The notes under the pieces were generated by a model. It ran no database searches, was not told the DNA's origin, and was given only the letters and a program-made list of their open reading frames with translations. Below are positions 14,136 through 63,503 of a stretch of DNA of 64,000 nt, one piece after another (the stretch's first letter is position 1; each line of letters starts with the position of its first letter). A program made the position numbers and the translations under genes. The DNA comes from Vicinamibacterales bacterium (lineage in GTDB: Bacteria; Acidobacteriota; Vicinamibacteria; Vicinamibacterales; UBA8438), in the NCBI GenBank assembly GCA_963663815.1, contig OY760734.1. One strand, given 5' to 3'.

Positions 14136-14160
14136 GGCTGCGGCTCGCGGATGCCTTTCG

Positions 14161-42389: not shown

Positions 42390-42433
42390 CTATACACTTG
42401 ACACCGCTTGACGCGGGCGGCTACCGTGCGCGG

Positions 42434-42868: not shown

Positions 42869-42873
42869 GGCAC

Positions 42874-43506: not shown

Positions 43507-43566
43507 CGAGCTTGAGAGTAGTCCCTGTCTCGCAAGAAAGGGCAACGAAATGGGATAGAGGTAAAG

Positions 43567-44328: not shown

Positions 44329-44666
44329 GGTACCGACCAGATCCGTGCTGAAATGCACCCCAAGGGTTCAACTCACGCCCTCGGGTGCTTGCGAGCCGGC
44401 CTCCGGGGCGCAGGATACCGCTAGAGCGGCGGCGAGACCGGTGCGGCTCGGTCAGGAACAAACGAGCGTTCTAACCGAACAGTCTCGGTTCGATCTCACT
44501 CTCCCTACGAGACTCGGATGCCGACAAGGGAGTCGGGCTCGACAAGGGTGACCGTCCTGATGGTCGTGGGTCAAGTCGATGGCTACCGAATCTGTTTTCG
44601 CTTGGAGGCCTTGTGAGTGGGTGGCGCGAACCCGGCCCCTCATGTCCGGGCTGCCGGACGCCCACT

Positions 44667-44702
44667 AGCTTGGCTTAGCTAGATGAATTAGCTAAGCAAG
44701 CT
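44667..44702. repeat. AT-rich imperfect palindrome AGCTTGGCTTAGCTA-gatgaat-TAGCTAAGCAAGCT at the right edge of the low-GC cassette
   Basis: Read directly. 14/15-bp arms with a 7-nt spacer, immediately before resolvase remnant 2. Confidence 0.6.
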
Positions 44703-44704
44703 CC

Positions 44705-44891
44705 GGGGTCGCCTTCGTGGTGTGTGTGGACGCTCAAGGAGAACATCCGGGTCGAGGGCAGTCGCGACATCCAGACGAAGGTCATGGCCGAGGTTGAGCG
44801 CGAGCTGATCTCGGAGCGCACCCGCGAGGGCCTCGCTCGGACCAGGGCCGGAGGCCGGAAGCTCGGCCGCCCCGGGCCGCGCCGTCGGTGA
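44705..44891 (+). pseudogene. serine recombinase remnant 2 (direct, diverged repeat of part of remnant 1)
   Basis: GVAFV.. then LKENIRVEGSRDIQTKVMAEVERELISERTREGLARTRAGGRKLGRPGPRRR*. Internal deletion and frameshift relative to a normal resolvase. Same strand as remnant 1. Confidence 0.55.
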
Positions 44892-45156
44892 CGACCGTGC
44901 ACGGGAACAATGTGACGTCGGCGCCGGCGCGTTGATGCCGGATTCGACGAGCGGGTGGGCTTCGACTGTCCGGGCGTCGTGGCGCGCCATTTCGCGAGGT
45001 CAGCCCGTCGTTCCGCCTCCCACAAGCGCTGGACGAGCCGACCCGGGAGATCACGCCCCGGCGCCATGGCCGGGGCGTGTAACGGGTAACGGCGTCAGCG
45101 AAGCCCGGCGGCTCGGCCGGTCCGGCAGGACGCGCGGCGCCGCGTCTCGGTAACGG

Positions 45157-45858
45157 TTACCGGCTCTCCTCCTCGAAGCTGCGCAGGTAACGGGACACGG
45201 TGATCGGCGCGCAGCCGATCGCCTTCGCGATGCGCCTGAAGCCGAGGCCCTGGGCCCGAAGCTCGACCATCCGCGCGACGGCCTCGGCCGACATCGGCGG
45301 GCGCAGGAACCCGCGCCTGACCGTCACGCGGCCGCGCCGGCGCAGGACCCTCCGGTCGGCGAGGGCCGGCATCGAGCGCTCGTCGTCGTCAACCTCGGGT
45401 GCGTGCTTCGCCACCTCGTGCCAGTCGACGGCGGCGCGCGTCGGACCGCCGTTGACGGGCTCGGGGTCCGGCATCTGGTCGAGGAGGCCGTCGCCGCCGC
45501 GCCACGCGACCTCGAACTCCTGCTCGGGGCCCACGACCGACTCGCGGACAACCGTCGTCAGCGGCTCGACCCGGTGGTAGACGACCGACAGCCCCGTCGT
45601 GTGGCCGGCGCCGGTGCGATACGACACGTCGGCGAGAGCCGAGCTCACGGCCGGACTCGCCAGCGCCGCGGCCAGCGCGGAGCCCTGGAGGCGCAGCTTC
45701 GTCGCCACGCGCAAGGCGCGGATCGTCGAGCCGGCGCCGTCGATCGAGCGGACGACGATCTCGGAGCCGACCCGGAGCGGCCGGCGCTCCCGGAACGGAT
45801 TCCCGCCGCCGTCGCGGAACCGGTCCCTCCTCGAATTGCGGACGCGAGTGCTGGCCAT
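45157..45858 (-). CDS. hypothetical protein with C-terminal resolvase-type HTH (HTH_7/23-like)
   Basis: AGGAGGAG RBS 7 nt upstream of the ATG. C-terminus ..MSAEAVARMVELRAQGLGFRRIAKAIGCAPITVSRYLRSF.. Confidence 0.6.
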   Translation of the reverse strand: MASTRVRNSRRDRFRDGGGNPFRERRPLRVGSEIVVRSIDGAGSTIRALRVATKLRLQGSALAAALASPAVSSALADVSYRTGAGHTTGLSVVYHRVEPLTTVVRESVVGPEQEFEVAWRGGDGLLDQMPDPEPVNGGPTRAAVDWHEVAKHAPEVDDDERSMPALADRRVLRRRGRVTVRRGFLRPPMSAEAVARMVELRAQGLGFRRIAKAIGCAPITVSRYLRSFEEESR

Positions 45859-46746
45859 CGTTCACTCCTCCTGCGGCGAGTCGCGTCCGGCCTCATGCCG
45901 ACCCGCGCTCGGTGCGCACACGTCGCGCCGCAGGACCCCTGCCCGCGATTCCGGGGTCAGGGAGCCCCGGAGGGGACCGCTGCCCGGGGTGTCTAATCGA
46001 CCGGCCGATGCTTTTCGGCGCCGGCGTTCAGGCCGGCCGGCCCGGGAGAGCGGCCCCTCGTCGGACACGGCGGTGGTGGTGGGGAGGGCGGTGGTGGTGG
46101 GGGGGAGGAGCCGGCCTGCGGCGAAGCCGCGTTTCTTGCCGGCGCCGTCAAGGTGAAGGAGCGGAGATTCGACGGCCCGGGCGTTCAGCGGCGGCGGTCG
46201 CTCTTCGCTTCCGCCGTCCTTGACGCCGGAATCTGCGAGAGGCGCACCCGTCTGGCCGGCCCGCTCTTCAGGCCGGCCGGGTGCGCCGTCGCAAGGGCAG
46301 GGGTTCGCCGCCCATCCCGTGGCCGTCGCCCTTCACGGCCTCGGGATGGAGGCCGGACCGCAGTCCCAGGTCCGGCCGGGGGCGGCGTCCGCCCCGCCGG
46401 CGGAGCCGGCGTTCGGAGCGGGTGACGTCCAACCCGCTCCGGGGGCGGATGGGACGACTGTGCGTGCAAGCCAACCTCTCGACCTGGCACGGCGTGAAGC
46501 AGGGGAGGACGGGGCGGCCCGCCCCGAAGCGGCGGGCCGGCAGACCCGCACGCGGGCCGCGGCGGACGGATCGGATACAGCGCGGCCCGCGTCGCTCGCG
46601 GGCCCTGTCCGGCCCGCCCTGGTCAGCATCCGGCGGGTGGGGCTCGGGGAGGGTCGTCCTCCCCGTGGAAACTGGAGGGGTTGCAGGGGAGAGCTTTGCT
46701 CACCCCCCTGGAGAATGAGCCGGACCTCTTGCGGTCCGCCAGCCAG

Positions 46747-47239
46747 CTAGGTGTTCGGCTTGGCCTTGGCGTTTCGCCGCGTGCCGAGCACGCGGTTCAT
46801 CAACGATTGCCCCGACACCTCGTCGACGGCGTTGTCGATCATGGCCCGCGTCCGCTCCTCGTTCACCGAGGCGGTTCGGGCTACCGTTTCCTTGAGTCCG
46901 GTCACCTCCGCCTTGATCTCCGTGATCGCGGAGACTTCGTTGGCGATCGCCGCGATCCGGGTCTCCATGGCTCTGAGCGCGGCCGTGATTACGCCGGGCT
47001 CGGACTATTGAATCGTCTCGGTTGCCGTCTTGAACGCCGTGACGGCCTCGCTGAGCTCGTCGACTCCCTTTCGGGTGGTCGTGATGAGCTTCTTGACTTC
47101 GCGGGCGAGAGCTTCGAGCCCCTTCCGGGTCTCGTCGAGGGACTTGTGGAGCGACTCCCTCTTCCAGCTGGCGGATGACCTCGCCGGCTTTCTTCTCGGT
47201 CTCGTCAAGGCGCTCGATCACTTGCTCCATCGTGTCCAT
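46747..47239 (-). pseudogene. coiled-coil protein gene interrupted by one frameshift (about 47165) and one in-frame TAG (47005-47007), or 2-3 tiny genes
   Basis: MDTMEQVIERLDETEKKAGEVIRQLE | ..SLHKSLDETRKGLEALAREVKKLITTTRKGVDELSEAVTAFKTATETIQ* | SEPGVITAALRAMETRIAAIANEVSAITEIKAEVTGLKETVART.. Confidence 0.35.
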
Positions 47240-47248
47240 CTGCTTTCC

Positions 47249-47716
47249 TCAGAATGCGTTCTCCGAGATCAGCGTTGTATACTCGTCGGCGCGGCGCGTG
47301 TGGGCTCGCCCGATGTTCTCGACCAGCCGTCCGAGTCTGCGGGCCCCGAGTATGGCGCGGACACGGTCGTCGGGGTGATCGTGTACACGGACGATGGCTC
47401 TCTTCGTCAACGGATCGAACTCGGGTCGCTCTTGGCGCAGCTCCAGGAGTTCGGCGGTGAGCGGTGGCCCGAGTTCGGGGGCGTACTCGGCGCTCAGGTC
47501 GAAGAGCGTCTCTACGGCGGCGTCGATCTCGCGTTCGGGGATGGCGTACTTGTGTTTCGCCGCGCCCAGGGCCGCGGCGATGCTCTGGCGAGTGGTCGCG
47601 TGGTCGTGGTCGGAGCACATCGTCTCGGCGACGGCGCGGGCCAGGAGCAGCCCCGGGTGGTCGGCCTGCGATTCGAGGGCGCGGATACACAGGCCGCGCA
47701 GCTCGCCGGCTTCCAT
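47249..47716 (-). CDS. hypothetical protein. The reading frame stays open and protein-like upstream to about 47830 without any start codon, so it is probably a 5'-truncated remnant.
   Basis: In-frame upstream translation ..QVRVLQEGLGSEYIRELLAAETVKFPPWWDLVRKVKNE-MEAGELRGL.. No RBS before the ATG at 47716. Confidence 0.4.
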   Translation of the reverse strand: MEAGELRGLCIRALESQADHPGLLLARAVAETMCSDHDHATTRQSIAAALGAAKHKYAIPEREIDAAVETLFDLSAEYAPELGPPLTAELLELRQERPEFDPLTKRAIVRVHDHPDDRVRAILGARRLGRLVENIGRAHTRRADEYTTLISENAF

Positions 47717-47827
47717 CTCGTTCTTGACCTTGCGGACGAGATCCCACCACGGTGGAAACTTGACGGTTTCGGCCGCGAGGAGTTCGCGAATATACTCTGA
47801 TCCTAGGCCTTCCTGCAGGACGCGGAC

Positions 47828-48040
47828 TTGAGCGAGCGGCAGGCCGAAGCGTTGGTAGACGTATTCAGCAATGCCATCGGCGAACCCATAACGAGAACGG
47901 ACCTGGACGCCTTCAAGTCGGACATCAGAGCCGAAATCGCAGCGCTCGACGCCCGCATCGGTACTCTGGAGGCGCGAATCACTTGGCGAATCGTGCTCGC
48001 CCTCGGGGCATTCGCTGCTCTAGTTCGCCTGATGCCCTGA
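47828..48040 (+). CDS. DUF1640-like fragment (lacks about 10 N-terminal residues; TTG start in track)
   Basis: ..LSERQAEALVDVFSNAIGEPITRTDLDAFKSDIRAEIAALDARIGTLEARITWRIVLALGAFAALVRL.. Same architecture as 36870..37262. Two stop codons (TGA, TAG) lie in frame about 20-30 nt upstream. Confidence 0.4.
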   Translation: MSERQAEALVDVFSNAIGEPITRTDLDAFKSDIRAEIAALDARIGTLEARITWRIVLALGAFAALVRLMP

Positions 48041-48059
48041 ACCGCGCCCTAGACAAGCG

Positions 48060-49859
48060 TCAGAGCGTCTCAAACCACGCCTTCATCTTCAACGCCATGA
48101 GTCTGCGCCGCTCTTCCAGGAACTCATCGTAGGCAGGGATGACACCGTCAAGCAGCGACGCCGGAAGACAATGATCTGACAGGTTCTCGCGCAGGTTTTG
48201 TGCGTCTGTTATGCCGCCGTACCTCTTGCTTCCGCCGTTGCACTGGGCCGCGACCTCGGGAAAGTACGTGGCTGGTGGGTCGTCACCGATGGCGATATTG
48301 ATCTCGCTCTGCGCGATCACCAGATTCGCAATCTGGTTGTAGCGGCCGGCCGGCAGATGCATCGTCTTCTTGAGGTAGTTCCTGGGAAAGACATGATGCC
48401 GATCGCTTCTGTACGTCAGCAGGTCGTTCACGGTGATGTCCCTGGACAGGAATCCTCTGTCGCCCTGCTTCACCTGCGCGGCCTGGTACGCCAAGAAGTA
48501 CGGACTGTTCGACGATGACGTTTCCATCAACTGCGGGAGCATGCCGGTCCAAAAGCTCTCGGAAAGCTCATTATCGATCAGCATGCCGGCATACGCCGCC
48601 AAGCCCCGGGACTCGATCTGTCGGATATCCGTGTCGAAGGTCGTCTCAGGGTTTCCTGTGTAGCGCCTCCGTAGGGTTGCCATCACGTACCATCGCCTGA
48701 CGAGTCGTTCGAGGTCGGCAGCCGGCATCTTTTCCGCCCGACCGCGAAGATAGATGATGTACGCGAAATTGACGGCGTTGAGTCCACCGATCAGTGCGCT
48801 GCTCACGAAGCCCCCCGAGCGCAGGATCATCGTGATGCGATCGAAGTGGGTCTTGTTGACGAAGGCCAGGATGCCCTTTTTCAACCGCGCGAACGACGCC
48901 TCGGCGATGGCCTCCTCGTACTCCTTGGTCTCGAAGTTGCGGCCCGAGAGCAGCGCCACCAAGTCCTGCAACCGGCCGCGCCCGAACTCGGACGTGAACG
49001 CGACCCGCAGCATGTCCGTGTAGGTCGGGTCGTAGATGTCGTCGTTGACGTCGCTCAGCCAGCGCATGCGGGGGAGAAACTCGGATGTCGCGAAGGCCGT
49101 GTCTCCCTGCTCGATGCGTGACAGAAACTCGGGCGCCACGGCAAGATGGCAGAAGTAGTCGATGGCCTTCCGGAGAAGGTTGCCCCCGTACTTTTCGCTG
49201 GCCGCGATTTTCGACATGACGAAATCGGCTTGGGAGAGTTCCGCGCCCGCTGAGTTCACGCGGATGAAGATCTCGGTCACCGTCTCAATGTCGAGATCCT
49301 CGGCCAGCTCAATGATGCCAACGGAGTTGTTGACGATCTTCCGGAGTTTCTCCAGCACGAGCGACACGCGCCGTCGGTCGGCGTGGACGTTCTTGGCTGT
49401 GTAGGCATCGGTCAACTCAACCAGGTTGGCGTGAGGCGCGAAAACGTCGGCCACGTCCTCGATCCAGGACGCGTCCTTGCGAATCGCCGGGTTGGCAACT
49501 TCGAACCGCTCCTCAACGGGGTGGAAGGCGATGCTGATGCGAACGATCTCGTAGTCCTTGGTCAAGACCTCTTGACCGAGAAGCGCCGCCATCAGAGCGG
49601 TGACGCGTTGCTGACCGTCGATCAAGATCCGCTTCCCGGCCGAGGGTGTCCCGTCCTTCAGCTTGACGGTCGGATTCCGCCAAGCGATCAGGTAGCCGAC
49701 GGGGTAGCCGCGATAGAGTGAATCGAGGAGATTGCGAACTTTGGTCGCATCCCAGACGAACGGACGTTGGATCTCCGGAATCGCGATCTCGCCGGACTTC
49801 ACCCAGGTGAGCAGCGTTTCGATGGGATGGGGCGTCACCGAGTACCGTTGAATTACCAT
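48060..49859 (-). CDS. DUF262 (ParB-like, DGQQR) + C-terminal His-Me/HNH-like (DUF1524-type) protein: GmrSD/SspE-like type IV restriction enzyme candidate
   Basis: Start moved to MVIQRYSV (49859). ..[37 protein letters not shown].. C-terminus ..[11 protein letters not shown]...[18 protein letters not shown].. GC visibly lower than the flanks. Confidence 0.75.
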
Positions 49860-51517
49860 GAGTCGGACTCTTCCTCCCGCAGCCTCGCTGAGTTCGCAGG
49901 CGGGGCCAGCAATCGCGGCTGGCGGTGCCTTCCCGTGCATAGGGCACGGCGTTCCCGTGCATAGGGCACGGCGGCTGGCGCGCAACCCGAGATGGTACCA
50001 CGTCGTGTTGCTCGGGCAGGCGCTTCGACTCGAGGAAGCCCGTGCCGCACAGCAGAGCGGTGGCGAGCATCCGGCAGACCACCGGACGGCGCCGGCACCA
50101 CGACGGAGTCGTTCTGCTTCAGCGCGCTCAGGATCGCCTCGCCCTGGAACGGGCGGAAATCCCGTTTCCGGAAGATGTTCCGAAGGAACAGCGTCAGCGC
50201 CGGGCGCGCGTCAGCGTACGTTTCGGCCACCGCCGGGCGGCGGTTCCGGTCGTAGGACTGTCGAGTCGCCATCGGCGGCGGGATCGACGCGGGACGGATG
50301 ATGAAGTCGGGTTCTCCGGTTCGGTCGATGGCGTCGAACGGGCTTGAGTCGAATTCCACGGCGATGCGGAGTTTGTCGCAGGCGTTGGCCGGGGCGGCCG
50401 GCTCGCCTCCTTCAGACCTGTCGGCCGCATCGGGCGGCCAGGTGACGGGCGGGTTGTCGCCGGCGTGCACGGTGCAGGCTCTCGGCGCTGTCCGGGTGCC
50501 GTAGAGTGCGTCGAGCGCCGCGATCATGTCGAGAGCGTCGGTGACGCCTCCCGCGGCGGCTGCGCCGGCGCCGGTAACGGTGACACGCCAGTCGGCGCCG
50601 CGGGTAAGCCAGCCGTACTCGACGGCCCGCGCGAGCGCGAACTGGACCTTGGATGCCTTGGCGCACTCGATGGCCAGCGCGGCGGGTTCGCTGTGGCCGG
50701 CCGGCGGGAACGCTTCGAGCGCGGCCCGGGACCGCTCCTGGATGCGGTCGAGCGCCGGGCCGCGGCCGCGCATCACCTCGTCGTTGGTGACGCGGACGAC
50801 GTCGATCCCAACGTCGTGCAGCTCCTTGTCTCGGACGCGGTCGGCGTCGGGGTCGTGCTCGGGGCCGTCGAGCTCGACCGTGAACGGCCGGCCGGCCGGA
50901 TGGCAGAACAGGAAGTCGCTCCGGCGGGCGCCGGAGCCGTCTCCGAGGCCGGCGGCCTCAAGGAGCGTGTCGAGCGGCGCCTGCGGCGTGAACCAGTGTC
51001 CCCCCTCGGGTCCGAGGGCCTCCGGCACCCACCTTTTCAGGAACACCGCCTCGGCGTCGCTATCGACGAGCGCGTCGGTGTCGCCGGGCGTGCCGTCGAA
51101 AGACGGGTCGAGCGTGAACACGCGCTTCCTGAGCGCTTGCGCCAGGATCGTGTCCGCCCTGGCGCTGAGAGCGTCGTTCAGCTTCTCGCGGTTCCAGCCG
51201 ACCTCATGCGAGTCCTCGCCGAGTTCGGCGACCTGGTCGGTCAAGGCACCGGCCTTGAGCGCCGCGCGCTCGACCCCGAGCGTCGCGAGCGGGGTCCGCC
51301 CTCGGCGGAGGATCTTGATCAGCAGGCTGCTCGTGAACCGGGCGTCCGTCGTGCCTTCGAGCGACCGGCTGGAATTCGACAGCACGAGCGTCTGGCACAG
51401 CACCTTGCGCAAGCGGTTCGCCTTCGCGAGGTGGCGGTGGAGGATGCCGGGGAGCGAGCCGATGGAGACGTACTCGGCGGCGAAGCCGGGGCGACGTTGG
51501 GGCGTTTTCCGGTCCAC
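49853..51517 (-). pseudogene. N-terminal portion of a DUF559(Vsr/endonuclease-like)-RecQ-like helicase. Sensible sequence stops about 20 residues into helicase motif I (about 50080); the rest of the ORF is a nonsense tail.
   Basis: ..FLFCHPAGRPFTVELDGPEHDPDADRVRDKELHDVGIDVVRVTNDEV.. (DUF559 pattern). ..[38 protein letters not shown].. (RecQ Q-motif/motif I entry), then [13 protein letters not shown]... No Walker A lysine and no further helicase motifs. Confidence 0.5.
49930..49973. repeat. perfect tandem duplication of a 22-bp unit TTCCCGTGCATAGGGCACGGCG, each unit a 6-bp-stem hairpin (CCGTGC-atagg-GCACGG)
   Basis: Read directly. 71-114 nt upstream of the DUF262 gene start and inside the nonsense tail of the truncated helicase ORF. 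Confidence 0.85.
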
Positions 51518-51904
51518 TCGACCGGGAGGTCGAGCATCTGCCGATTCGTCGGTGGCCCGGGCGGGCCGCTCGGGCTGGGCTTCTTGCCCGTCTCCGGGCG
51601 GTCTAATGCGCGAGGACGCCGGCGCCGGCGGCGGGTCGGTCGGGGCTCGTCGGTCGCGATGCCGGGCGGGGGCGAGGTCGCGCGGGTTGTTCGCGTGTTC
51701 GCATGGGTCCGCGGGAATTGTAGGCCGGATGCGCTCGATGCATTGCGCCCGCCACTCCTGGGATGAGGCATCGTCGAATGGGCTCAGGCGACTCGCGTCT
51801 GGGAATGGCTGCCGGGAGGGAGGCGGTGGGCCCTTGGGGAGCCGTGGGTGCGCGCCCCGCTTTGCTCCCGAGGACGACTGCCGCTGGCGGACGCGAGGCG
51901 GCTG

Positions 51905-52174
51905 TCAACCGAGCCCAGCCACGTCGAGAGCGTCCGGCCGGGATGCGGTGCCTTGGGTGATGCGCTCCTCGAGGAACAGCTTGGCGTCGCGCCGCTTCGC
52001 GAACGCGGCCGAGGGGCGCCACTCTTCGGGCTGATCGGTTGCCTCGTGAACCTCCCAGCGGGCGGAGTCCGGTTGCGGTCCGGACTTCGTTCGTACGAGC
52101 CGCCAGCGGCCGTCGGGGGTGCGGTACTCTCGCCGGCCGTTCTTGCCCGGCTCGTGTCTCGGTGTCAGCTTCAT
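51905..52174 (-). CDS. small hypothetical protein
   Basis: MKLTPRHEPGKNGRREYRTPDGRWRLVRTKSG..WEVHEATDQPEEW.. Last gene of the primase operon. Confidence 0.4.
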   Translation of the reverse strand: MKLTPRHEPGKNGRREYRTPDGRWRLVRTKSGPQPDSARWEVHEATDQPEEWRPSAAFAKRRDAKLFLEERITQGTASRPDALDVAGLG

Positions 52175-52206
52175 GCGTTCGTGCTCTGTCGTTCCGCCGG
52201 CTGCTC

Positions 52207-52437
52207 TCACGCGCGCCCGGTCGTCACCCGTGCGATTCCACCCCCTCGGCGGGGAGCCGTCGTCTCGACGTCGCCCACGTGTGCGCCGACGTCGCCGGCG
52301 CCGAAGAGCGGGAGCTGGCGGAGCGCCTGGTCGACTTCGGCGACGGTGGCGGCCCTGAAGCCGTTGCCCGTGTCGACATCGACTCGAACTACTCCTGCCT
52401 CGTCGGTGGCCAGGACCCGCCAGCGGAGGATGGTCAT
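52207..52437 (-). CDS. small hypothetical protein (76 aa)
   Basis: ATG at 52437 coupled (ATGA) to the primase stop. MTILRWRVLATDEAGVVRVDVDTGNGFRAATVAEVDQALRQLP.. Confidence 0.4.
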   Translation of the reverse strand: MTILRWRVLATDEAGVVRVDVDTGNGFRAATVAEVDQALRQLPLFGAGDVGAHVGDVETTAPRRGGGIARVTTGRA

Positions 52438-53324
52438 GAGGGGCCTGCTGCCGTGACCAGGTTGCTCTCGCTCCGCACCCACTCGACGAGGGGCGCGACG
52501 TCGTCGGCGGCCCAGGCGTCCCAGGCGTCGAATCCCTCGGTCGCCGGCGCCCACCAGGGGAGGCCCGTCCTCACGGCGGCGTCGATGCCGGGACGGACGC
52601 CGTTCTCGTCCGGATGGTCGTGGTCCGCGATGACGGCGGCCGGGCGCCGGCCGAGCCGTCTGGCCGTCTCGAGGAGTCCGTTTCGGGAGAGGCAGGCCGC
52701 GACGCCGAGCGGCGGGTCGGTGATGCAGAGGGCGACCGCGAGGGCGGAGGCCACCCCCTCGGTGAGCAGGAGCGGTCCCGCCGCGCGCCAGCGGGGCGAC
52801 GTCGCGAGTCCAGAGAGCCGCAGGTCGCGCTGAAACCGCTTGGCGCCGTCGGGTAGGATGAACTGGGCGCCGGCGATGCCGGGAAGCAGCTGCCCGCCGG
52901 CGAAGGGCTTCAGCGGCACGAGCCACATGTCGCGGTGCGTCCAGACGAGCCGCTCGGAGTCGGGGAACTTCCGGCGGAAGTACGTCGGCTGGCCGCGGTG
53001 GGCGACGGCGAAGAGCCGCCGGGCGCGGCGGGCCTGGTCGGAGAGTGTCGGGTCGGCGAGCTCGACCGCGACGGTGGCCGGGCGCCGGCGCCGCGGCCGA
53101 ACCCGGGTGTCGAACGAGTCGCCGAGCAACGCGCGGTGCAGTTGCCGGTACGTGTGTCCGTGCCGGCATCGCGCGAGCACGGGTTGGACGCGCCCGGGCT
53201 TGATCCAGAAGCGGTCGTCGCCGGTCTGGCAGATCGGGCAGGGGCCGCAGTGCTCCTGCCCGCGGCGGCGGAGCGTGATGCCCTGCCGGCGGCACGCATC
53301 GATCCAGTCGTGGACCGTGGGCAT
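52434..53324 (-). CDS. primase-like protein: CHC2-type zinc finger + Toprim domain
   Basis: Start moved to MPTVHDWIDAC. ..EHCGPCPICQTGDDRFWI.. (Zn finger) ..LLLTEGVASALAV..AVIADHDHPDENG.. (Toprim E and DxD). Confidence 0.65.
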   Translation of the reverse strand: MPTVHDWIDACRRQGITLRRRGQEHCGPCPICQTGDDRFWIKPGRVQPVLARCRHGHTYRQLHRALLGDSFDTRVRPRRRRPATVAVELADPTLSDQARRARRLFAVAHRGQPTYFRRKFPDSERLVWTHRDMWLVPLKPFAGGQLLPGIAGAQFILPDGAKRFQRDLRLSGLATSPRWRAAGPLLLTEGVASALAVALCITDPPLGVAACLSRNGLLETARRLGRRPAAVIADHDHPDENGVRPGIDAAVRTGLPWWAPATEGFDAWDAWAADDVAPLVEWVRSESNLVTAAGPS

Positions 53325-53475
53325 GACTTGGTTCCGTTTCGATCGGGCCTGCAGGGCGCTCGAGCCCGGAGTGACGACCGTGGGGCTGTCCGAAGCCGGC
53401 ACCCTGCTGTCCGGCATGATATCCCGTCCTGTGCGCGCCGGAGCGAATCACTCGTCCAATCGGAGGGGGGCCTAC

Positions 53476-53991
53476 ATGAGATGGAGTTCGCTCGACACGG
53501 CCGCGCTGGTTGTCGCGGTCGGGGCGGCGCTGGCCGGTTGCGCATCGAGGGGGCCTCGCGCGGCCGAGATGGAGCAGGTGAGCGAACAGCGGGCCTGCCA
53601 GGTCCGCCCGGAGGCGTGCGGTCCGGAAGCCGGACTGGAGGCGTGGGCGGCGGGGCTGCGCCGCCTGCGTGCCGAGCAGTGCGGGACCGATCACGGTCTC
53701 GGACCCGGCGCGGCCGAGTTCGTTTGCGAGGAGCCGGCCCGGTTCGTGCGCTACGACTTCGACCTGATGCCATGGATGAACACGGACTGGGCATCGCGGC
53801 CTGGCCCCGCGCGCCGCGGTGCGCTCCTGTGCCGGGAAGGCGGCGGCTTCGCGGCCGTGGACAGCAGCTTCGGGGAGTTCTGGGTGCCGGTGCAGTACTA
53901 CCGGCAGGATCGCCACCCGCTGGTGCGGCTGATCCCGCAGCAGCGGATGGCCGGGTTCATCGCCTGGGCGCGGCGATCTTGCGCGGGGTGA
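53476..53991 (+). CDS. lipoprotein, hypothetical
   Basis: GGAGGGGGG upstream. MRWSSLDTAALVVAVGAALAGCAS = lipobox L-A-G-C. Confidence 0.6.
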   Translation: MRWSSLDTAALVVAVGAALAGCASRGPRAAEMEQVSEQRACQVRPEACGPEAGLEAWAAGLRRLRAEQCGTDHGLGPGAAEFVCEEPARFVRYDFDLMPWMNTDWASRPGPARRGALLCREGGGFAAVDSSFGEFWVPVQYYRQDRHPLVRLIPQQRMAGFIAWARRSCAG

Positions 53992-54002
53992 CTGCCGCGC
54001 AT

Positions 54003-54670
54003 TCACGGTTGGGATTCTCCGGCGAGATTCTCCAGCCGCGTCCGCTCGTCTTCGAGTTCCCTCAGGTAGGTGATGACTATGGAGCGGGCCGACGCGCCGG
54101 GGTTACCGGTTCTCGCGAGGGCGAAGGCGTCCCATGTATCGTCATAGAGCCGAGACGTTCCGGGGCCGTCATTGAAGTAGCCCCGGGCTTGGTCGAAGGC
54201 CATCTGGCTTCGGTCCGGGCGGCTTCAGCCTGGGCGGCGGTCGAGGCTGCGTGCTCTACCCGTTGCTCAAGCAGGTTCAGAACCTGCTGCTGAACTACCT
54301 CGACCTCGTCGAGGGTGACCGCCACTTCGTCGGAGCATCCGAGGACGTTCACGATTCGACAACCGGCTCTGCTGCGCAACCACCAGGACGACAGGCTGCT
54401 CGTGGCGGTTCGTCCACGCGATCGCCGTAAAGGGCTGCACCGGCGCGAAGCCCAGGGTCGCGAGGAGGTCGTTGACCTGGTCGACGGCGGGCGGGTGCTT
54501 CGTGAGCTCGTGCTGCTCGATGTCCAGGTGGTACTCTGCGGGGAGGGTTCCGAGGTAGTGGGCGTCGTCCTCGTACGCGGCTTCGATCGTACGGGGGTCG
54601 AGGTCGCCGGGGTGGTCGGGGATGGCGCAGACGATGAGCGGGTCCGCGTCCGAGGCTGAATGAGCGTCAT
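54003..54670 (-). pseudogene. coding signal that changes frame three times (ATG 54670 / good frame 54660-54400 / 54400-54210 / 54203-54003): decayed gene or several tiny genes
   Basis: MTLI | SASDADPLIVCAIPDHPGDLDPRTIEAAYEDDAHYLGTLPAEYHLDIEQHELTKHPPAVDQVNDLLATLGFAP..VVLVVAQQSRL | IVNVLGCSDEVAVTLDEVEVVQQQVLNLLEQ.. | MAFDQARGYFNDGPGTSRLYDDTWDAFALARTG.. Confidence 0.3.
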
Positions 54671-55071
54671 TGGTCCGTGCGGCGCGTCGTCGCCGCCGAA
54701 AGGCAGTCGTTGGCGACGAGGCTCCAGGAGTCCCTGACTGCGCCATCCCTTCCGGGCCACACGGTCTTGGTGAGGTCGCCCATCAGGCAGACCCCGCTTC
54801 CCTTCCTGCACTTCGCGAGCCGCGCGGCGGCGTCCCGGAAGGCGGTGACGTCGAGGAACCACGTCTGCGGTTCGGGCGCTCGGGGTCCGGTGACGTTGAC
54901 CGCGACCCTGGCCGTCGTGTAGTTCGCGCCGGCCTTCGAGGTGCGTTCGACGGGGTCGGCGACGAGCCGTCCGAACGCGGAGATCTGGACGTTGGGGGTC
55001 GGTGGAGCCGGCGGCGACCCCGTCGTTGTTGTCGTGGCCGGCGTGTCCGGGGCTGGCGCGTCAGCAGTCAT
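54667..55071 (-). CDS. ssb: single-stranded DNA-binding protein (OB fold), plasmid/phage type
   Basis: ..VQISAFGRLVADPVERTSKAGANYTTARVAVNV...WFLDVTAFRDAAARLAKCRKGSGVCLMGDL.. is the typical SSB strand pattern. Confidence 0.55.
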   Translation of the reverse strand: MTADAPAPDTPATTTTTGSPPAPPTPNVQISAFGRLVADPVERTSKAGANYTTARVAVNVTGPRAPEPQTWFLDVTAFRDAAARLAKCRKGSGVCLMGDLTKTVWPGRDGAVRDSWSLVANDCLSAATTRRTDQ

Positions 55072-55085
55072 CGGGTCGGAGCCTG

Positions 55086-55415
55086 TCAGGGAACAGCGGG
55101 AGCCTGGGGGAGCACGGCGCGTTCGAGTGTTTCGAGGCGCTGCTCGACCTTGCCGAACTCGATCTCGACGTTGCGAAGCCGGGTGTTGAACTCGCGATGG
55201 TCCTCGCGCATTTCGCGATGGTCCTCTCGCATGTCGCCGCGGAGCGTGTCGAGCCGACGGTCGACGGATTCGACGCGACCGTTCAGGGCGTCCATCTGAC
55301 CGGTGATCGTGGCCAGATGGTCGTTGATTCCGCTTGCGACGATAGCGATGGTGCTCACGATGATCGTCGTGATCGCGAGCCCGGTTCCGATGATGGTCAG
55401 GTTCGTCTGGTTCAT
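55086..55415 (-). CDS. N-terminally anchored coiled-coil protein
   Basis: MNQTNLTIIGTGLAITTIIVSTIAIVASG.., then heptad-like ..LRGDMREDHREMREDHREFNTRLRNVEIEF.. Confidence 0.5.
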   Translation of the reverse strand: MNQTNLTIIGTGLAITTIIVSTIAIVASGINDHLATITGQMDALNGRVESVDRRLDTLRGDMREDHREMREDHREFNTRLRNVEIEFGKVEQRLETLERAVLPQAPAVP

Positions 55416-55422
55416 CTTGGCC

Positions 55423-55713
55423 TCACATTACCACGGCCCGCCCCATCGGGGCCGTGCCTCCCTCCGGTCCGCTCCGAGCCTCCCGGGCCCGTGCGGCGTT
55501 CCCGGCCGGACGCTCGCCGGTGGGCACCTCCAGACAGCCCGGGCAGTCCACCTGGCCGTCGTCGGATGCCAGCCGTTCGTCGGCTGTCGGCAGGCCGCAA
55601 GCGGTCAGGGTCTCGTCAGTCTCGTGCCACTCGTGAACCCAGGCTCGTGAACCCGGTGGCGTTGCGGGTTCGGCCGCGAGCGCAGCGAGCGGACGAACGA
55701 ACCAGGCCCTCAC
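55423..55713 (-). CDS. small hypothetical protein with a CxxC pair
   Basis: ..WHETDETLTACGLPTADERLASDDGQVDCPGCLEV.. First gene of the minus-strand operon. Confidence 0.3.
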   Translation of the reverse strand: MRAWFVRPLAALAAEPATPPGSRAWVHEWHETDETLTACGLPTADERLASDDGQVDCPGCLEVPTGERPAGNAARAREARSGPEGGTAPMGRAVVM

Positions 55714-55804
55714 GTCGTTCCGCGGTTCGGATTCCCTCCATCACGCCACTCTAGCCCCCCCTCCCCCCCTGTGCTCGCAGGCTGCAACTCGCGGCGCGAT
55801 AGTG

Positions 55805-56290
55805 GGGCCCCGACCCGGCGGGCCAGGGTCGTCCGGCGACACTCGACCCGCCGACGTGACCGGCGGGTCGCTCGTGATGGTCGGTCGCTTCCGACCCCGC
55901 AGGACATCGCGGGGTCGTCCATGGTGCGCGCGAGGAAACAGCCCTCTGGTCGTGGTCCCGACCCGGCAGGCCAGGTCGTCCGATGGCGTGATTGTGAGGT
56001 CCCGACCCGGTGGGCCAGGGTCGTCCAGGCGGAACTCGACCCGCCGACGTGGTCGGCGGGTCGCCGTTGATGGTCGGTCGTTTCCGACCCCGCAGGACAT
56101 CGCGGGGTCGTCCAGGGTGCGCGTGAGAAACAGCCCTCTGGTCGTGGCCCCGACCCGGCGAGCCGGGTCGTTCGACGAAGCTCGATCCTTGGCCGGGTCG
56201 CCCGGTGCTGGTCGGTCTCCCGACCCGGACGGAAGAGCCGACCCGAGCGGCCGGGTCGCTCGAAACGCGCCGATCCGGGTCGTTCCGGAA
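55805..56290. repeat. array of GC-rich hairpins built on CGACCC(N)..(N)GGGTCG: 192-bp unit x2 (about 88% identity by eye) plus a degenerate third part
   Basis: Units start at 55805 and 55997. Examples: CGACCCGCCGacgtgacCGGCGGGTCG, CGACCCCGCaggacatcGCGGGGTCG. About 10 hairpins in the 650-bp divergent intergenic region before the ParB-like gene. Confidence 0.85.
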
Positions 56291-56370
56291 CCGGTTGGCC
56301 CCCACGAGCGTGTGTGGTACGTTCGGCCCCTCGGGGCGTTCCGCGTGAGACTGTCGCGGGAGTGGGGGAG

Positions 56371-57591
56371 ATGGATTCAGAGCACGAGGCGCAGGACGAG
56401 CTGGTCGAGATCGGCGGCAGGCAGTACCGGGTCCATCCGGCGGCGGCGATGTTCCCGATCATGTTCGGCCGCGAGTTCGACGAGCTGGTCGAGGACGTGC
56501 GCGTCAACGGGCTGCGCGAGCGGGTCGTCGTCAGGGGCGACCAGCTGGTAGACGGGCGGAACCGGGTCCGAGCGTGCGCGGCTGCCGGTGTCGTCCCGGA
56601 GGTCCGGGAGCTGGAGCGCGGGACCGACGTGGCGTCGTGGGTGATGTCGGTGAACGTGCACCGGCGTCACCTGGACGCGTCGCAACGGGCCCTGTTGGCG
56701 AGCCGCCTGTCCGCGCTGAGCGGTGAGGTGACGTTGATCCAGGCCGGGGAGCTGATGGGCGTATCGCGGGCCTCGGTGGCACGGGCGGCCGCGGTCGAGA
56801 AGGGCCCCGAGCCGCTGAGAGCCGCCGCCCGCGACGGCGTCGTGTCGGTGGGCGACGCCTACGAGTCGCGCGGCGAGGCGCCGGAGACCATCGAGCAGCT
56901 GGTCGAGGACGTTCGCTCCGGCGCGGCGCCGAATCTGAGGGCCGCGAAGCGCCAGCGGGGCATCGCGGACAAGCCCCGGAAGAAGGACCCGCGGGGCCGG
57001 AAGCCGAAGACCGCGGCCACCGACGCAGGGCAATCGTCGGGCGAGACGGGCGATGGCGGCGGCGGGGTCGCGCTCGGGCGGCTCGTGGATCCGGAGGAGC
57101 CGGGTCCGGGGCGTCCACCGACGTCGCTGGGTTCGGAAGCGGAGACGCTGTTCTCGGGAGCCGAGGGTCTCGCAGCCGGTGAGGCGAACGTCGCCCCGAA
57201 CCCGGGAGATCTGCGCAGCCGAGCGGAAGCCGCCCTGGGCGGAGACGGGGCCGTGGAGGGGTCGAGCATCGGCGAGGGAGCCCCGTGGCCTGCCGAGGGC
57301 GGCGTGGTGTGGCTGACCGGGGAGGGCGGTCTGGACGGGGTAGTCGAGCGGGTAGTGGACTGCGTCAAGAAGGTCTCGGAGTCGGGCGGGGTGGTCGTGG
57401 CCGGGCCTGCGGACGTCGGGTCAGCCGCAACGCAACGCCTCATGGCTCTCCCGGAGCTGACCGCGGTGTCGTTCGAGCGTGCGTCGGGAGGTGAGCTTCC
57501 GCGGATGCTGTGGGGGTTCCGAGTGGGGCTGGGCGACTTCAGAAGGGCGTGCGACGGGTTCGGGGTCGTTCTGGAGACGGCGTCTCGGTAG
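56371..57591 (+). CDS. ParB-like nuclease-domain protein (ParB/Srx fold + HTH) with a long disordered C-terminal half
   Basis: GGGGGAG upstream of the ATG at 56371. ..YRVHPAAAMFPIMFGREFDELVEDVRVNGLRERVVVRGDQLVDGRNRVRAC.. ..IQAGELMGVSRASVARA.. Confidence 0.6.
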   Translation: MDSEHEAQDELVEIGGRQYRVHPAAAMFPIMFGREFDELVEDVRVNGLRERVVVRGDQLVDGRNRVRACAAAGVVPEVRELERGTDVASWVMSVNVHRRHLDASQRALLASRLSALSGEVTLIQAGELMGVSRASVARAAAVEKGPEPLRAAARDGVVSVGDAYESRGEAPETIEQLVEDVRSGAAPNLRAAKRQRGIADKPRKKDPRGRKPKTAATDAGQSSGETGDGGGGVALGRLVDPEEPGPGRPPTSLGSEAETLFSGAEGLAAGEANVAPNPGDLRSRAEAALGGDGAVEGSSIGEGAPWPAEGGVVWLTGEGGLDGVVERVVDCVKKVSESGGVVVAGPADVGSAATQRLMALPELTAVSFERASGGELPRMLWGFRVGLGDFRRACDGFGVVLETASR

Positions 57592-57683
57592 GCGCGTGCC
57601 GAACCGGCGGGCGGCGACGCGAGCGGTCCGGCCGCGACCCCGTACCGTCGAGCTCAGCCGGACCGTTCGCGTGAACGGGGCGG

Positions 57684-58601
57684 TCACGGACGCATGGGCG
57701 AAGCAGTAGCGCCGGCCGGGGGCGGTGCGGGGAGCTCGAAGGGCAGGGCGTTGGCCGGGCTGTAGACGGGCATGCCGTCCTGGCCGGCCTCCTCGGGGCT
57801 GTCGGCGCCGGCCCCGTCGGTGTCTCGCGTGACGCAGAGGCGTTGGCCGGCGGCGCGCAGGGGCTCGAGAAACGCGATAGGCGAGACGGTGGCGACCTCG
57901 GTGGAGGCGATGCCGTGAGCGGTGTTGATCTGGCGGACGTACCGTGCGGCGTCACCCCAGTGGTAGAGGCGGCCGTCAGGGCTCTGCAGCATGTGGATGT
58001 GCGGCGCGTCCGCGTTGGTGTGGCAGATGACCCGGCTCCGGGCCCAGGGCAGCGGCCAGGCGTAGGGACGGGGCAGCGATGTGAGGCGCGCCACGGCGGT
58101 CTGGTCGAGGAGCAAGCTGTCGTCGAGTGCCTCCCATGGCGGGGGCGTGGCCGACGCCTGCCGGGGGTCCGCTTCCGGCGGCTCATGGGAATCAGGGGCG
58201 GCCTCGTCGGGCCGGCGTTCGGGCTCGGGCGTCTCGCTTGCCGGCTCGGGCACGTCTACGTCAACGCGGCTGGCGACGACGGCGGGGGAGTCCGGTTCAA
58301 CGATCTCGGCGGCCGCCGGTGGCGGAGCGGTGGGCACCGATGTCGTGACGGCCGTCTCACCGGGCTCGACGACTTCGTCGGCGAGTTCCGGCTCGTTGTC
58401 GGGCCCTCGCGGCGTGAAGATCACGAGCAAGGCCAAGGCCAGCAGAGCGACGGCCGCGTAGACCACGGGCGAGTGCGTTGGCGGCAGGCGTAGCCGCAGT
58501 CTGGGCGGCGCGGTGAGCTTGGGCAACCGCAGCTTGAAGCGACGGGCGGGGGCAGCAGGCTCGTCAGGAGCCGGTGCGTCGGGTCGGTTGTGCTCGGTCA
58601 T
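57684..58601 (-). CDS. membrane-anchored hypothetical protein (Pro/Glu-rich linker)
   Basis: ATG coupled (ATGA) to the parG-like stop. TM ..VVYAAVALLALALLVIF.. Confidence 0.5.
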   Translation of the reverse strand: MTEHNRPDAPAPDEPAAPARRFKLRLPKLTAPPRLRLRLPPTHSPVVYAAVALLALALLVIFTPRGPDNEPELADEVVEPGETAVTTSVPTAPPPAAAEIVEPDSPAVVASRVDVDVPEPASETPEPERRPDEAAPDSHEPPEADPRQASATPPPWEALDDSLLLDQTAVARLTSLPRPYAWPLPWARSRVICHTNADAPHIHMLQSPDGRLYHWGDAARYVRQINTAHGIASTEVATVSPIAFLEPLRAAGQRLCVTRDTDGAGADSPEEAGQDGMPVYSPANALPFELPAPPPAGATASPMRP

Positions 58602-58915
58602 TGGTGGTCGCCCTCGTGGTCGTCCAGGTACTCGACGATCGCGTCGATCACGATGTCTCGGGCCGCGCGGTCGGCGTCGATCGCGTAGTGGCGCAGCCGC
58701 CGGTGGAGCTTGCGCGGCATTAGGATGTTCATTGTAACGGGGGCGGCCGGCTGCGGCTCGGGTCGGGCCGCGCGTTGCGGCGCCGCGGCCGCGGGAGGCG
58801 TTGATGGCGGTCCGGAAGGCATCGGTGTCGGCTTCGCGGGCGGGGGCGCCGGTTCGCTCTCGGCGTCTTCGTTGAGCTTCTGGAGGGCGTCGGTGAGGTC
58901 CTTGCGGTCGGTCAT
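58598..58915 (-). CDS. ParG-like centromere-binding protein (disordered N-terminus + C-terminal RHH)
   Basis: ATG at 58915 overlaps the parA stop. C-terminus ..MNILMPRKLHRRLRHYAIDADRAARDIVIDAIVEYL.. is an RHH pattern. Confidence 0.55.
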   Translation of the reverse strand: MTDRKDLTDALQKLNEDAESEPAPPPAKPTPMPSGPPSTPPAAAAPQRAARPEPQPAAPVTMNILMPRKLHRRLRHYAIDADRAARDIVIDAIVEYLDDHEGDHQ

Positions 58916-59655
58916 GCAGTCTCCTTGGTGTCTGCCTGCGGTAGCGCCCGGACGGAGACGAGCCAGTCGTAGAGCTCGACGAGCTCTACGGCGGCCTTGG
59001 TGCCGGGCTCGGTCTCGGCGGCGCAGCGGCCGGAGTTGAAGGCGTGGCTGTGGGCGATGCGTTGATGCAGCGTGACCGGGCAGATCGCGACGTCGGCGGC
59101 GGCCAGGATCCGGTGGCTCTGCGCGATTGTCGGGTGGTTGACGATGGCGCGGTTGATGACGACCGTGGCGGGTGTGCCGGCGCTCTCGGCGATCTGGATG
59201 GTCTGGTGAATGGCCCGGAGGTCGGGAGCGGAGGGCTGGACGGGGATGAGGATGTGGTCGGCGACGGTGGCCACCGTGAACGCGTCTCCTCCGGAATGCG
59301 GAGCGGTGTCGATCACGCAGAGCGTGGCGCCCAGCGGCGCCATTCGGCCCAGCATTCGTTCGAGGCGGTTGGCGTGAGCCGGGAGGACGTCGGGGTGCTC
59401 GAGGCCGGCGTCCTGGCGGAGGTCGTGCCAGTTGCAGGCGCTGCCCTGGGGGTCGACGTCGAGGAGGACGGCTCGGTGCCCGGCCTGTTCGGCGAGCGCG
59501 GCAATCGCGCAGGACAGGGTGGTCTTGCCGGTGCCGCCTTTCTGCGAGAGCACTGCAAGCACAGGAGGCCTGGTGGGCTTGATGACCAGTGACGGCATGC
59601 CAGCAACGGAAACATCCGCAACTGTTGTGCCATCCGGTGACGATGGTCTCTCCAT
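58912..59655 (-). CDS. parA: ParA/ParF-type partition ATPase (deviant Walker A)
   Basis: ..LAVLSQKGGTGKTTLSCAIA..VLLDVDPQGS..CVIDTAP.. An alternative start at 59598 (MPSLVIK..) is possible. Confidence 0.85.
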   Translation of the reverse strand: MERPSSPDGTTVADVSVAGMPSLVIKPTRPPVLAVLSQKGGTGKTTLSCAIAALAEQAGHRAVLLDVDPQGSACNWHDLRQDAGLEHPDVLPAHANRLERMLGRMAPLGATLCVIDTAPHSGGDAFTVATVADHILIPVQPSAPDLRAIHQTIQIAESAGTPATVVINRAIVNHPTIAQSHRILAAADVAICPVTLHQRIAHSHAFNSGRCAAETEPGTKAAVELVELYDWLVSVRALPQADTKETA

Positions 59656-59689
59656 GACTCTTCATGATACCAGGGCAGTTGACGGAAGG

Positions 59690-59790
59690 CCACGATGTTG
59701 TTCTGTAGTGCGTTACGGGCGTTCAGAGTGTATTGTCAGTGTCAATGGTTATGAGTGTAGTATTTGTAATGGTTGATTAAGATGGAATAT
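59690..59790. promoter_or_regulatory. AT-rich region upstream of parA with two adjacent approx 26-bp imperfect direct repeats (GAGTGTA..TTGT..AATGGTT): candidate partition site/operator
   Basis: Repeats at 59726-59752 and 59753-59777. This is the most AT-rich stretch in this part of the window. Confidence 0.45.
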
Positions 59791-60331
59791 GCGCTCTATG
59801 ACTTTCATGCGGGAGGCTCTGCGGCGGCCGGGAGATCGGCCCTGACGGTGCGCGGAGACGGTGGGCCATGCGGAGGACTCCGTGGGGGGGGCCGGGCCCT
59901 GGCGGGCCGCGAGGGCTCTCCTCGTGGTCGTGGGGCCGCGGCTGACCGTGCAGGCCCAATCGGTACGCCTGCATGTGGACCGAACCGACGGAATGGGGCC
60001 TCAACGCCGGCGCGGCGGCTCTCGCGATCTTCCGGTCGCTCCAGCCGGCCTCGACGCCGATCTGCCACCGCGCCCGGATCCGGCGCAGCTGCGACTCCGT
60101 CCACGGGTGCCGTCGCCAGCGCGGCGGCCGGTTGCGCCAGACCCAGGCGCGCAGGGCGGCCGCGGTCCGGCCCATGCGCGTGGCGAGACGCTCCCACTCG
60201 ATCGCCGGGACGTTGTGGCGCCAGCGCACCGTGAGCTCGTCGACCTGGCGCCGGTCGTCCGTCGTCCAGGCGGTGCGGTGTCGATGGTCGCCTCGGGACC
60301 ACGCCCAGGGGCGTTGGGGCATTGGCCGCAT
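59777..60331 (-). CDS. hypothetical protein with two Trp-spaced Myb/SANT-like repeats
   Basis: Start moved to the ATG at 60331 (GGAAGTGAGAGA upstream). ..WTTDDRRQVDELTVRWRHNVPAIEWERLATRMGRTAAALRAWVW.. and ..WTESQLRRIRARWQIGVEAGWSDRKIARAA.. Confidence 0.4.
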   Translation of the reverse strand: MRPMPQRPWAWSRGDHRHRTAWTTDDRRQVDELTVRWRHNVPAIEWERLATRMGRTAAALRAWVWRNRPPRWRRHPWTESQLRRIRARWQIGVEAGWSDRKIARAAAPALRPHSVGSVHMQAYRLGLHGQPRPHDHEESPRGPPGPGPPHGVLRMAHRLRAPSGPISRPPQSLPHESHRAHIPS

Positions 60332-60494
60332 TCTCTCACTTCCGCGGAGCGGACAAATCCAGCCTGAGCGACCCCCGCGGTGCTGACCCAGGAGTGACAC
60401 CTTGGTTTCACGCTCTGGGTCAGGAACGAGTAGTACGTAGCGGGGTCGCTCAGGTGTTGCTTTCCACTGCCTATGCGGAGCTCTGCATAGGCAG

Positions 60495-63457: not shown

Positions 63458-63503
63458 GGGCGTGCTCCTTTCCGGCCAATCTGGCCGGATAGAAGCATCC
63501 CAA

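Follow-up and report, generated by a model that had tools for sequence, protein, structure and literature searches.

The DNA analysed here is a 64,000-nucleotide (nt) stretch of contig OY760734.1, the whole of which is referred to as the window. In it, a fragment of a defence cassette, consisting of a GmrSD-like type IV restriction gene and part of a DUF1640 gene, has very probably replaced the core of a helicase-nuclease gene on a conjugative element by microhomology-mediated illegitimate recombination. An earlier note, made from the letters of the window, had described a helicase gene whose core was lost to an inserted GmrSD-like gene. The loss of the core is borne out by the comparisons below, and the event is refined from a simple insertion to a replacement by illegitimate recombination. 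The regions concerned are as follows, with related sequences given L numbers and related proteins P numbers.

50099..51704 (minus strand): 5' remnant of the helicase-nuclease gene, 90% identical to L001/L015 and 87% to L010 by blastn, ending at 50099
50735..50884 (minus strand): DUF559, a predicted Vsr-like PD-(D/E)xK nuclease segment (PF04480, E 1.8e-6)
47820..50098 (minus strand): foreign replacement segment of 2,279 bp with a G+C content (GC) of ~0.60, unalignable to intact helicase loci
49860..50098 (minus strand): leader of the GmrSD gene, imported with it as judged by comparison with L003/L004
48060..49859 (minus strand): intact gene of 599 amino acids (aa) for a predicted GmrSD-like (BrxU/HEC-05-like) type IV restriction enzyme (Pfam, PADLOC and PDB match)
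47828..48040 (plus strand): 5'-truncated gene for a DUF1640/CCDC90-like small membrane-anchored coiled-coil protein, identified by orthology to L003/L004
47813..47819 (minus strand): 3' recombination junction with the microhomology CCTG(C/G)AG, from a three-way alignment of the window, L003+L004 and L001
47249..47819 (minus strand): 3' remnant of the helicase gene, its last ~190 codons without start or promoter, 91% identical to L001/L010 at the nucleotide level
46747..47239 (minus strand): pseudogene of a 164-aa coiled-coil partner, 3' of the helicase gene, from alignment to L001 13829-14323

To the relatives L001/L015 and L010, the window aligned by blastn in two blocks, 51704..50099 and 47819..46741, at 87-91% identity. 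Between both blocks the relatives have 1.64-1.66 kb of helicase core, whereas the window has the 2,279-bp GmrSD segment. The GC profile, which the earlier note had proposed as a check, falls at ~47.8 and ~50.0 kb, with 0.59-0.63 across this interval versus 0.70-0.75 in the flanks. The protein P0137 (1,262 aa) matched the N-terminal fragment of the window with its residues 56-527 (72% identity) and the startless C-terminal fragment with its residues 1074-1262 (74% identity). Since one homologue spans both fragments, as had been anticipated, both are pieces of one gene of ~1,260 aa. According to this alignment the window is short of ~549 residues, and with them of all helicase motifs from motif I on; with these core residues replaced by 2,279 bp, a full helicase cannot be restored by correcting a single frameshift. 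Two further matches to the N-terminal 480-aa query, P0015 and P0016, were C-terminal halves that end as the startless frame of the window does.

The sister copy of the element in L010, a Vicinamibacterales metagenome-assembled genome (MAG), is collinear with window 60459..45153 at 86-91% nucleotide identity and keeps the helicase core at the site, with one 1-nt homopolymer indel. As this is the same element with the core in place, the intact gene is ancestral at exactly this site. The frameshift of L010, which lies near the position of the 3' junction, was considered as a part of the event and rejected, being the homopolymer indel and unrelated.

The limits of the remnants were read from blastn and alignment. 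Homology of the 5' remnant to intact relatives ends at 50099/50098, in agreement with the RecQ-type helicase entry and subsequent loss of homology that had been reported. Of the RecQ-family core only the Q-motif region (FRPFQGEAI) is present, divergence precedes motif I (LPTGGGKS in relatives), and the window does not contain a complete core (motifs I-VI). Homology sets in again at 47819 and extends as far as the stop codon at 47251..47249. The startless frame of about 47830..47249 had been taken for the orphaned helicase C-terminus, which is correct from 47819 downward; the open minus-strand frame from 47819 up to 48019 is antisense to the DUF1640 fragment and is not helicase. The start formerly assigned at 51517 had to be abandoned, as the native start is the ATG at 51704..51702, separated from the 51517 frame by a 1-nt deletion at ~51697 and a 2-nt insertion at ~51500. 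Both frameshifts are private to the window among 8 relatives. The resulting open reading frame (ORF; 51517..49853, minus strand) begins at GTG 51517, encodes 554 aa and ends in 74 residues of out-of-frame leader sequence; its stop codon (49855..49853) lies 4 nt past the GmrSD ATG (49859), giving an overlap of 7 nt.

The DUF559 segment noticed earlier in the N-terminal region was recovered with PF04480 at aa 212-261 of the 554-aa ORF (28.2 bits versus a cutoff of 20.6), a match confined to profile positions 55-106 of 109, its C-terminal half. The segment reads RRxDFLF...VELDGPEH...RD, and D201, E215, D217, G218 and H221 of the region are invariant in the family alignment. An AlphaFold2 (AF2) model of the N-terminal 480 aa had a mean predicted local distance difference test score (pLDDT) of 69 and a predicted template modelling score (pTM) of 0.70. 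A Foldseek search of this model against the PDB gave nothing at E <= 0.001, and the modelled nuclease part gave weak matches only, of VRR_NUC and I-Bth0305I homing-endonuclease-like type.

The lower-GC gene within the segment, previously described as DUF262 (DGQQR) plus HNH-like, is present at 49859..48060. The GmrSD_N/DUF262 profile PF03235 matched aa 15-218 with 101.8 bits versus a cutoff of 33.2 (E 7e-29; profile positions 3-198 of 199). In an alignment of 22 relatives at >=79% identity, DGQQR (aa 81-85; 49619..49605) and NLLDS were invariant, and so was a C-terminal motif of the form HH...N...N (H488-H489-x-x-P492...N508...N512...E519-x-N521; HHVFP at 48398..48384). A role of DGQQR in nucleotide hydrolysis has been reported for BrxU and HEC-06 (Payne et al., bioRxiv 10.1101/2024.01.29.577857). 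The protein is full length relative to its family, and full-length relatives of 94% identity exist. Thus, judged from sequence, membership in the GmrSD family is well supported for the N-terminal domain, and for the nuclease at the level of motifs only.

A likely type of donor of the segment is given by L003 and L004, which carry a GmrSD+DUF1640 cassette in integrase-bearing islands. Window positions 49949..47813 are 90% identical to this cassette, which has a GmrSD gene of 94% identity and, next to it in convergent orientation, an intact 89-aa DUF1640 gene. The unit common to L003 and L004 is 2.9 kb long, and the version in the window is trimmed at both ends. The oppositely oriented DUF1640 fragment described in the earlier note is thus what is left of the gene beside GmrSD in L003/L004: it keeps the last 70 of 89 codons and has lost its promoter, its start codon and the first ~16-19 codons, the latter number depending on the use of the in-frame TTG at 47828. 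A full-length match to PF07798 was not obtained for the fragment (14.3 bits, E 0.038), and the intact orthologue in L004 scored 32.8 bits versus a cutoff of 33.5 (E 7.8e-8); the assignment to DUF1640 is therefore one of orthology to a borderline match.

The sequences at the 3' junction are ...GTCCGCGTCCTGGAGC... in the donor, ...GACTACCTGCAGGAAGG... in the helicase gene and ...GTCCGCGTCCTGCAGGAAGG... in the window. The sequence CCTG(C/G)AG is common to the donor cassette and the helicase gene, and the three-way alignment places the crossover inside it (47819..47813). With this crossover the DUF1640 gene loses its start codon and the first codons after it. No integrase, transposase, terminal inverted or direct repeat, or target-site duplication was found at 47820..50098. 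Together with the 3' microhomology, the lack of transposon ends and integrase makes illegitimate, microhomology-mediated recombination the simplest reading.

Delivery of the cassette by a site-specific mobile element, with an integrase or transposase targeting the helicase gene, would be suggested by its surroundings elsewhere. In L003 and L004 the cassette adjoins P4-type integrases and ~110-bp repeats, in L004 it lies between apparent fragments of a split MmeI-type gene, and several other genomes have a broken helicase gene, in one case beside an ISL3 transposase. However, none of the hallmarks of such an element is present at 47820..50098, and what arrived is shorter at both ends than the 2.9-kb unit. 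The cut runs through the DUF1640 coding sequence, as that of a site-specific event would not, and the other disrupted alleles break at different positions. Site-specific delivery is accordingly considered very unlikely. In L004 (7208-14693), the cassette and the P4-type integrase have a 77-aa MmeI_C-like fragment on one side and a 470-aa MmeI_Mtase/TRD gene of the same strand on the other; here an island with this GmrSD gene may have split a further defence gene.

The leader imported with the GmrSD gene contains a GGAGG ribosome-binding site ~14 nt before the ATG, and the same site is present in L003 and L004. It also contains a tandem duplication of a 22-bp unit with the palindrome CCGTGC-N5-GCACGG (49970..49927), of which L003 and L004 have one copy each with a loop different from that of the window. 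The duplicated palindrome (49927-49970) may be an operator. The predicted RNA fold of the leader was not more stable than that of shuffled sequences (z = -0.15).

A junction of two unrelated loci can also be produced in silico, by a metagenome assembler joining a helicase locus and a GmrSD locus. The window is derived from a MAG, and related helicase copies, which could mislead an assembler, occur in the same samples (variants at 50095-50157; X3, X5). Against this, 98-100% of the sampled words of 47500-50400 were found in five public runs from five samples and two studies, and the region was present in the independent per-run assemblies of the four runs compared. Single unitigs of 47699-50785 (X1), 47681-50257 (X2) and 47198-50157 (X3) each contain both junctions, with zero differences from the window and a uniform depth like that of the flanks. 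The crossing of both junctions by independent unitigs indicates that the arrangement is not a misassembly, and a chimera is scarcely credible. The 5' frameshifts and the lesions of the partner gene were likewise identical in independent contigs of X1 and X3.

Variants of minor depth were also observed. One contig (50095-50157; X3, X5) continues from 50095 into an intact motif I (LPTGGGKS), and another (51661-51800; X2, X4) has the 1-nt deletion restored and differs by 5 single-nucleotide polymorphisms. These sequences indicate that the same samples contain a helicase allele with less damage, on a second copy or in a co-existing strain.

The remnants of the old module show further damage. The two frameshifts near the 5' end of the helicase gene separate the native start and the nearly invariant PVxW motif from the rest of the frame. 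In the partner pseudogene, 2 nt are deleted at 47159/47158, and the CAG codon at 47007..47005 has become a TAG stop. These four further lesions, two in the helicase remnant and two in the partner gene, indicate that the old system is dead. Independent decay of the family was found elsewhere: in L006/L007, beside an ISL3 transposase, a deletion has joined the N-terminus to the partner gene, and in L008 the gene is reduced to a 339-aa stub.

Nevertheless, the event could have turned the 554-aa ORF into a stand-alone DUF559 nuclease, acting together with the overlapping GmrSD gene or as its regulator. Past 51517 the remnant runs for 480 codons without a stop or frameshift, versus two lesions in the 164-codon partner gene; its ratio of nonsynonymous to synonymous substitution rates (dN/dS) against the closest relatives is 0.39-0.43 and not elevated; and the 7-nt overlap of its stop with the GmrSD start is compatible with translational coupling. 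However, the ORF has lost the native start and PVxW, its tail consists of the 74 out-of-frame leader residues, and the similar stubs in L006/L007 and L008 look like plain decay. In addition, no stand-alone family stands out among the search matches, in which shorter entries look like fragments. A live N-terminal fragment is therefore regarded as unlikely, and the replacement of the core followed by decay is the preferred account of the locus.

Some observations weigh against this account or against parts of it. At the 5' junction (50099/50098), L003/L004 diverge from the window in the adjacent 150 bp and microhomology is not readable there, and the replacement may have taken two separate events rather than one. 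The dN/dS of the remnants was 0.29-0.43, which is not above that of intact copies (0.30-0.45); the substitution pattern thus gave no sign of relaxed selection on the remnants relative to intact copies, and the event may be recent relative to the divergence among the available relatives. As to the incoming gene, no Pfam, NCBIfam or PDB sequence match was obtained for the C-terminal 246 aa of the GmrSD protein even at E 10, and its AF2 model, built on a shallow alignment of 22 relatives, was poor (pLDDT 46.8). With neither a C-terminal profile nor a good model, the predicted nuclease activity depends on the conserved motif. Finally, a sigma-70 promoter scan of the insert, which may not apply to this phylum, returned none.

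The following course of events would account for the locus. The conjugative element would once have carried a two-gene module of a ~1,260-aa helicase-nuclease and a 164-aa coiled-coil partner. Another defence cassette would then have supplied a 2.28-kb fragment, made up of the leader, the BrxU-like GmrSD gene and the 3' part of the convergent DUF1640 gene, which recombined into the helicase gene and took the place of ~1.65 kb of its core, and the remnants of the old module would have decayed. The GmrSD protein would be the sole working product of the locus, with expression depending either on its own leader or on transcripts that read through from the old helicase promoter. By analogy with BrxU/GmrSD, it would use its DUF262 domain (DGQQR) for the binding and hydrolysis of nucleotide, and its HH...N...N His-Me-finger for cutting DNA with modified cytosine, for instance that of phages with hypermodified genomes.

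The lineage of the incoming protein is widely distributed. All 8,000 candidates scored for it gave E <= 1e-10, and the best 120 of at least 8,000 relatives were all 598-600 aa long and 79-94% identical, although they come from several phyla. Named relatives belong to Burkholderiales, Gammaproteobacteria, Gemmatimonadales, Chthonomonas and Acidobacteria, and nucleotide matches of 70% to the gene were found on Meiothermus and Pseudomonas plasmids. Such a uniform lineage across phyla points to very recent, frequent horizontal transfer or to very strong constraint. An 81%-identical copy is located between hsdM and hsdS in four Burkholderiales MAG contigs (L090-L093), next to DarT/DarG; this type I restriction-modification operon also includes genes for an AAA_14/DUF4143 ATPase, DarT, a macrodomain protein (DarG-like) and a Schlafen/AlbA_2 protein. 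GmrSD-like genes embedded in other defence loci have been reported before, 96.7% of them in the same orientation (bioRxiv 10.1101/2024.01.29.577857).

The family of the destroyed gene was delineated by an exhaustive HMMER search, which yielded 452 cluster representatives; most matches of >=1,000 residues were 1,200-1,320 aa long. Its members comprise an optional topoisomerase-type Zn-ribbon, an N-domain, DUF559, a middle domain, DEAD and Helicase_C domains, and a tail of ~400 aa. DEAD and Helicase_C are present in P0137, and the RecQ-family model TIGR00614 scored 236.4 bits on P0016 versus a cutoff of 219.8. In one member, P0167 (1,643 aa), the DUF559-RecQ body is preceded by an N-terminal Ser/Thr protein kinase domain and by an ExoX-like C-terminal motif.

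A genome scan found 65 strong family loci in about a dozen phyla, mostly in complete MAGs. The gene of ~3.85 kb is uninterrupted in nearly all of them, being intact in L011-L014, L016, L017 and ~50 other genomes. A coiled-coil partner of 140-180 aa lies directly downstream on the same strand in 53 of 61 loci, with a median gap of 8 nt, and clustering of the flanking ORFs of the 61 loci gave no other neighbour in more than 8 loci. The paired loci belong to Acidobacteriota, Latescibacterota, Gemmatimonadota, Chloroflexota, Pseudomonadota, Verrucomicrobiota, Bacteroidota and others. L001 and the window resemble each other in the two-gene module alone, their flanks being dissimilar even at the protein level, which indicates that the module moves as a unit. 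Defence-type neighbours were found with PADLOC in some loci (Lamassu LmuA, HEC-01A/B, a type IIG restriction-modification enzyme, a Ppl-like ATPase and PDC-S01), in a scan of eight hand-picked proteins (six neighbours, one partner copy and P0137) that serves as an illustration and not as a statistic.

The N-terminal 480 aa gave no match in PADLOC, NCBIfam, or the plasmid and phage collections, and in the literature searched on DUF559 with RecQ or helicases in defence neither this helicase family nor its pairing with the coiled-coil partner is described. The nuclease-helicase architecture, the mobile two-gene unit and the neighbours would fit a defence module, and a defence role is accordingly proposed for the destroyed gene. 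That it belonged to an undescribed two-gene anti-phage or anti-plasmid system, so that the window would present one defence system overwritten by another, is advanced tentatively, as a possibility slightly short of an even chance.

The surroundings of the locus indicate, from their gene content, part of an integrative conjugative element of type IV secretion system type, whose genes lie at 14398-35321 with the recombinases at 60580-63532.

14398-17214: VirB4/TraG-type P-loop ATPase (Pfam)
24827-27589: coupling protein, TrwB/TraG-type (Pfam)
54667-55071: single-stranded DNA-binding protein (SSB; profile scans)
60580-63532: three tandem tyrosine recombinase genes, at the right end of the window (profile scans)

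A prophage context was considered and rejected, because PHROGs gave only SSB, integrase and a faint terminase-like P-loop, whereas Pfam gave the VirB4/TraG-type and coupling-protein ATPases; the phage collection held no near match to window 40-64 kb. In the genome scan, the genomes closest to the window were Vicinamibacterales MAGs (Acidobacteriota), and the host, an uncultured bacterium of soil or sponge type, is thus a Vicinamibacterales-like acidobacterium by these matches. An actinomycete host, for which the Streptomyces-like GC of 70-75% would speak, was rejected.

What looks like a second cargo insertion is located at 42122-44865 of the same element. This 2.6-kb segment of low GC (0.50-0.53) contains a DUF2971 gene (43567-44328, plus strand) and a gene for a possible membrane protein (42874-43506, plus strand), and is bracketed by ~150-bp direct repeats, 82-89% identical (42122-42269 and 44742-44865), which encode the C-terminal end of a serine recombinase. 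L010 has ~290 bp only at this site. Conversely, L010 has ~2 kb extra (14129-16165; one 533-aa minus-strand ORF) between the partner gene and the next shared gene, a piece not present in the window, where 46747 adjoins 46733 directly.

In summary, defence-island turnover of this kind is ordinary and well documented, and the incoming gene belongs to a known enzyme family. What the case mainly adds is the clean before/after pair formed by L010 and the window, together with the pointer to an uncharacterised two-gene helicase-nuclease module. It provides a base-resolved example of the turnover of defence cargo on a conjugative element, and adds to the reported nesting of GmrSD-like genes in defence loci an example in which a coding sequence was entered and destroyed. 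Two leads arise from it: a GmrSD lineage at least 79% identical across many phyla among its best relatives, and a widespread, unstudied pair of a helicase-nuclease and a coiled-coil protein.

Among known systems, BrxU of E. fergusonii pEFER (PDB 7P9K) was the best PDB match of the 599-aa protein and its one relative of solved structure, and HEC-05 the best PADLOC family (E 3.3e-31), with a best stretch of only aa 9-61. HEC-05 is BrxU-like (Payne et al., bioRxiv 10.1101/2024.01.29.577857). Like BrxU, the protein is a single chain of ~590-600 aa with an N-terminal DUF262, xLxDS, DGQQR, a helical linker and a C-terminal (D/H)HxxP...N motif, and like BrxU and other GmrSD-like genes its lineage is found embedded in defence loci (L090-L093). 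In contrast, its similarity to 7P9K is limited to aa 13-61 and 159-220, its motifs are NLLDS and HHVFP versus RLFDS and DHIYP in BrxU, and its gene sits in a coding sequence it destroyed and not between the genes of a working system. Eco94GmrSD/EcoCTGmrSD and SspE likewise have the architecture of a DUF262 NTPase and a His-Me-finger nuclease. The profile match to SspE (6JIV) was weak and covered the DUF262 core (E 0.78), with nothing significant beyond it, and unlike SspE systems the GmrSD gene of the window has no ssp or dnd genes nearby.

The destroyed gene is to be compared with single-protein helicase-nuclease defences, which include Nhi and Hna. Hhe, reportedly from Gao et al. 2020, is said to combine DUF4011, a superfamily 1 helicase and a Vsr/DUF559-type nuclease. 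Like Hhe, the destroyed gene joins a predicted Vsr/DUF559-type PD-(D/E)xK nuclease and a helicase in one large protein, and like the Hhe group its family is sporadic, with variable neighbourhoods that often include defence genes. Unlike Hhe, it is a superfamily 2, RecQ-family helicase with the nuclease at the N-terminus and a small coiled-coil partner; the Hhe models of PADLOC matched none of the window fragment, P0003, P0016 and P0137. The models of DpdF (E 4e-87) and PsyrT (E 3e-60; PsyrTA) match the helicase core of intact relatives, but only in the generic RecQ core (residues ~490-890 of 1,262), and the NCBIfam score for DpdF was 170 versus a cutoff of 550. Unlike PsyrTA and Dpd, the family has no PsyrA-like or dpd genes alongside, and what sets it apart is its N-terminal DUF559 region together with its C-terminal 400 aa.

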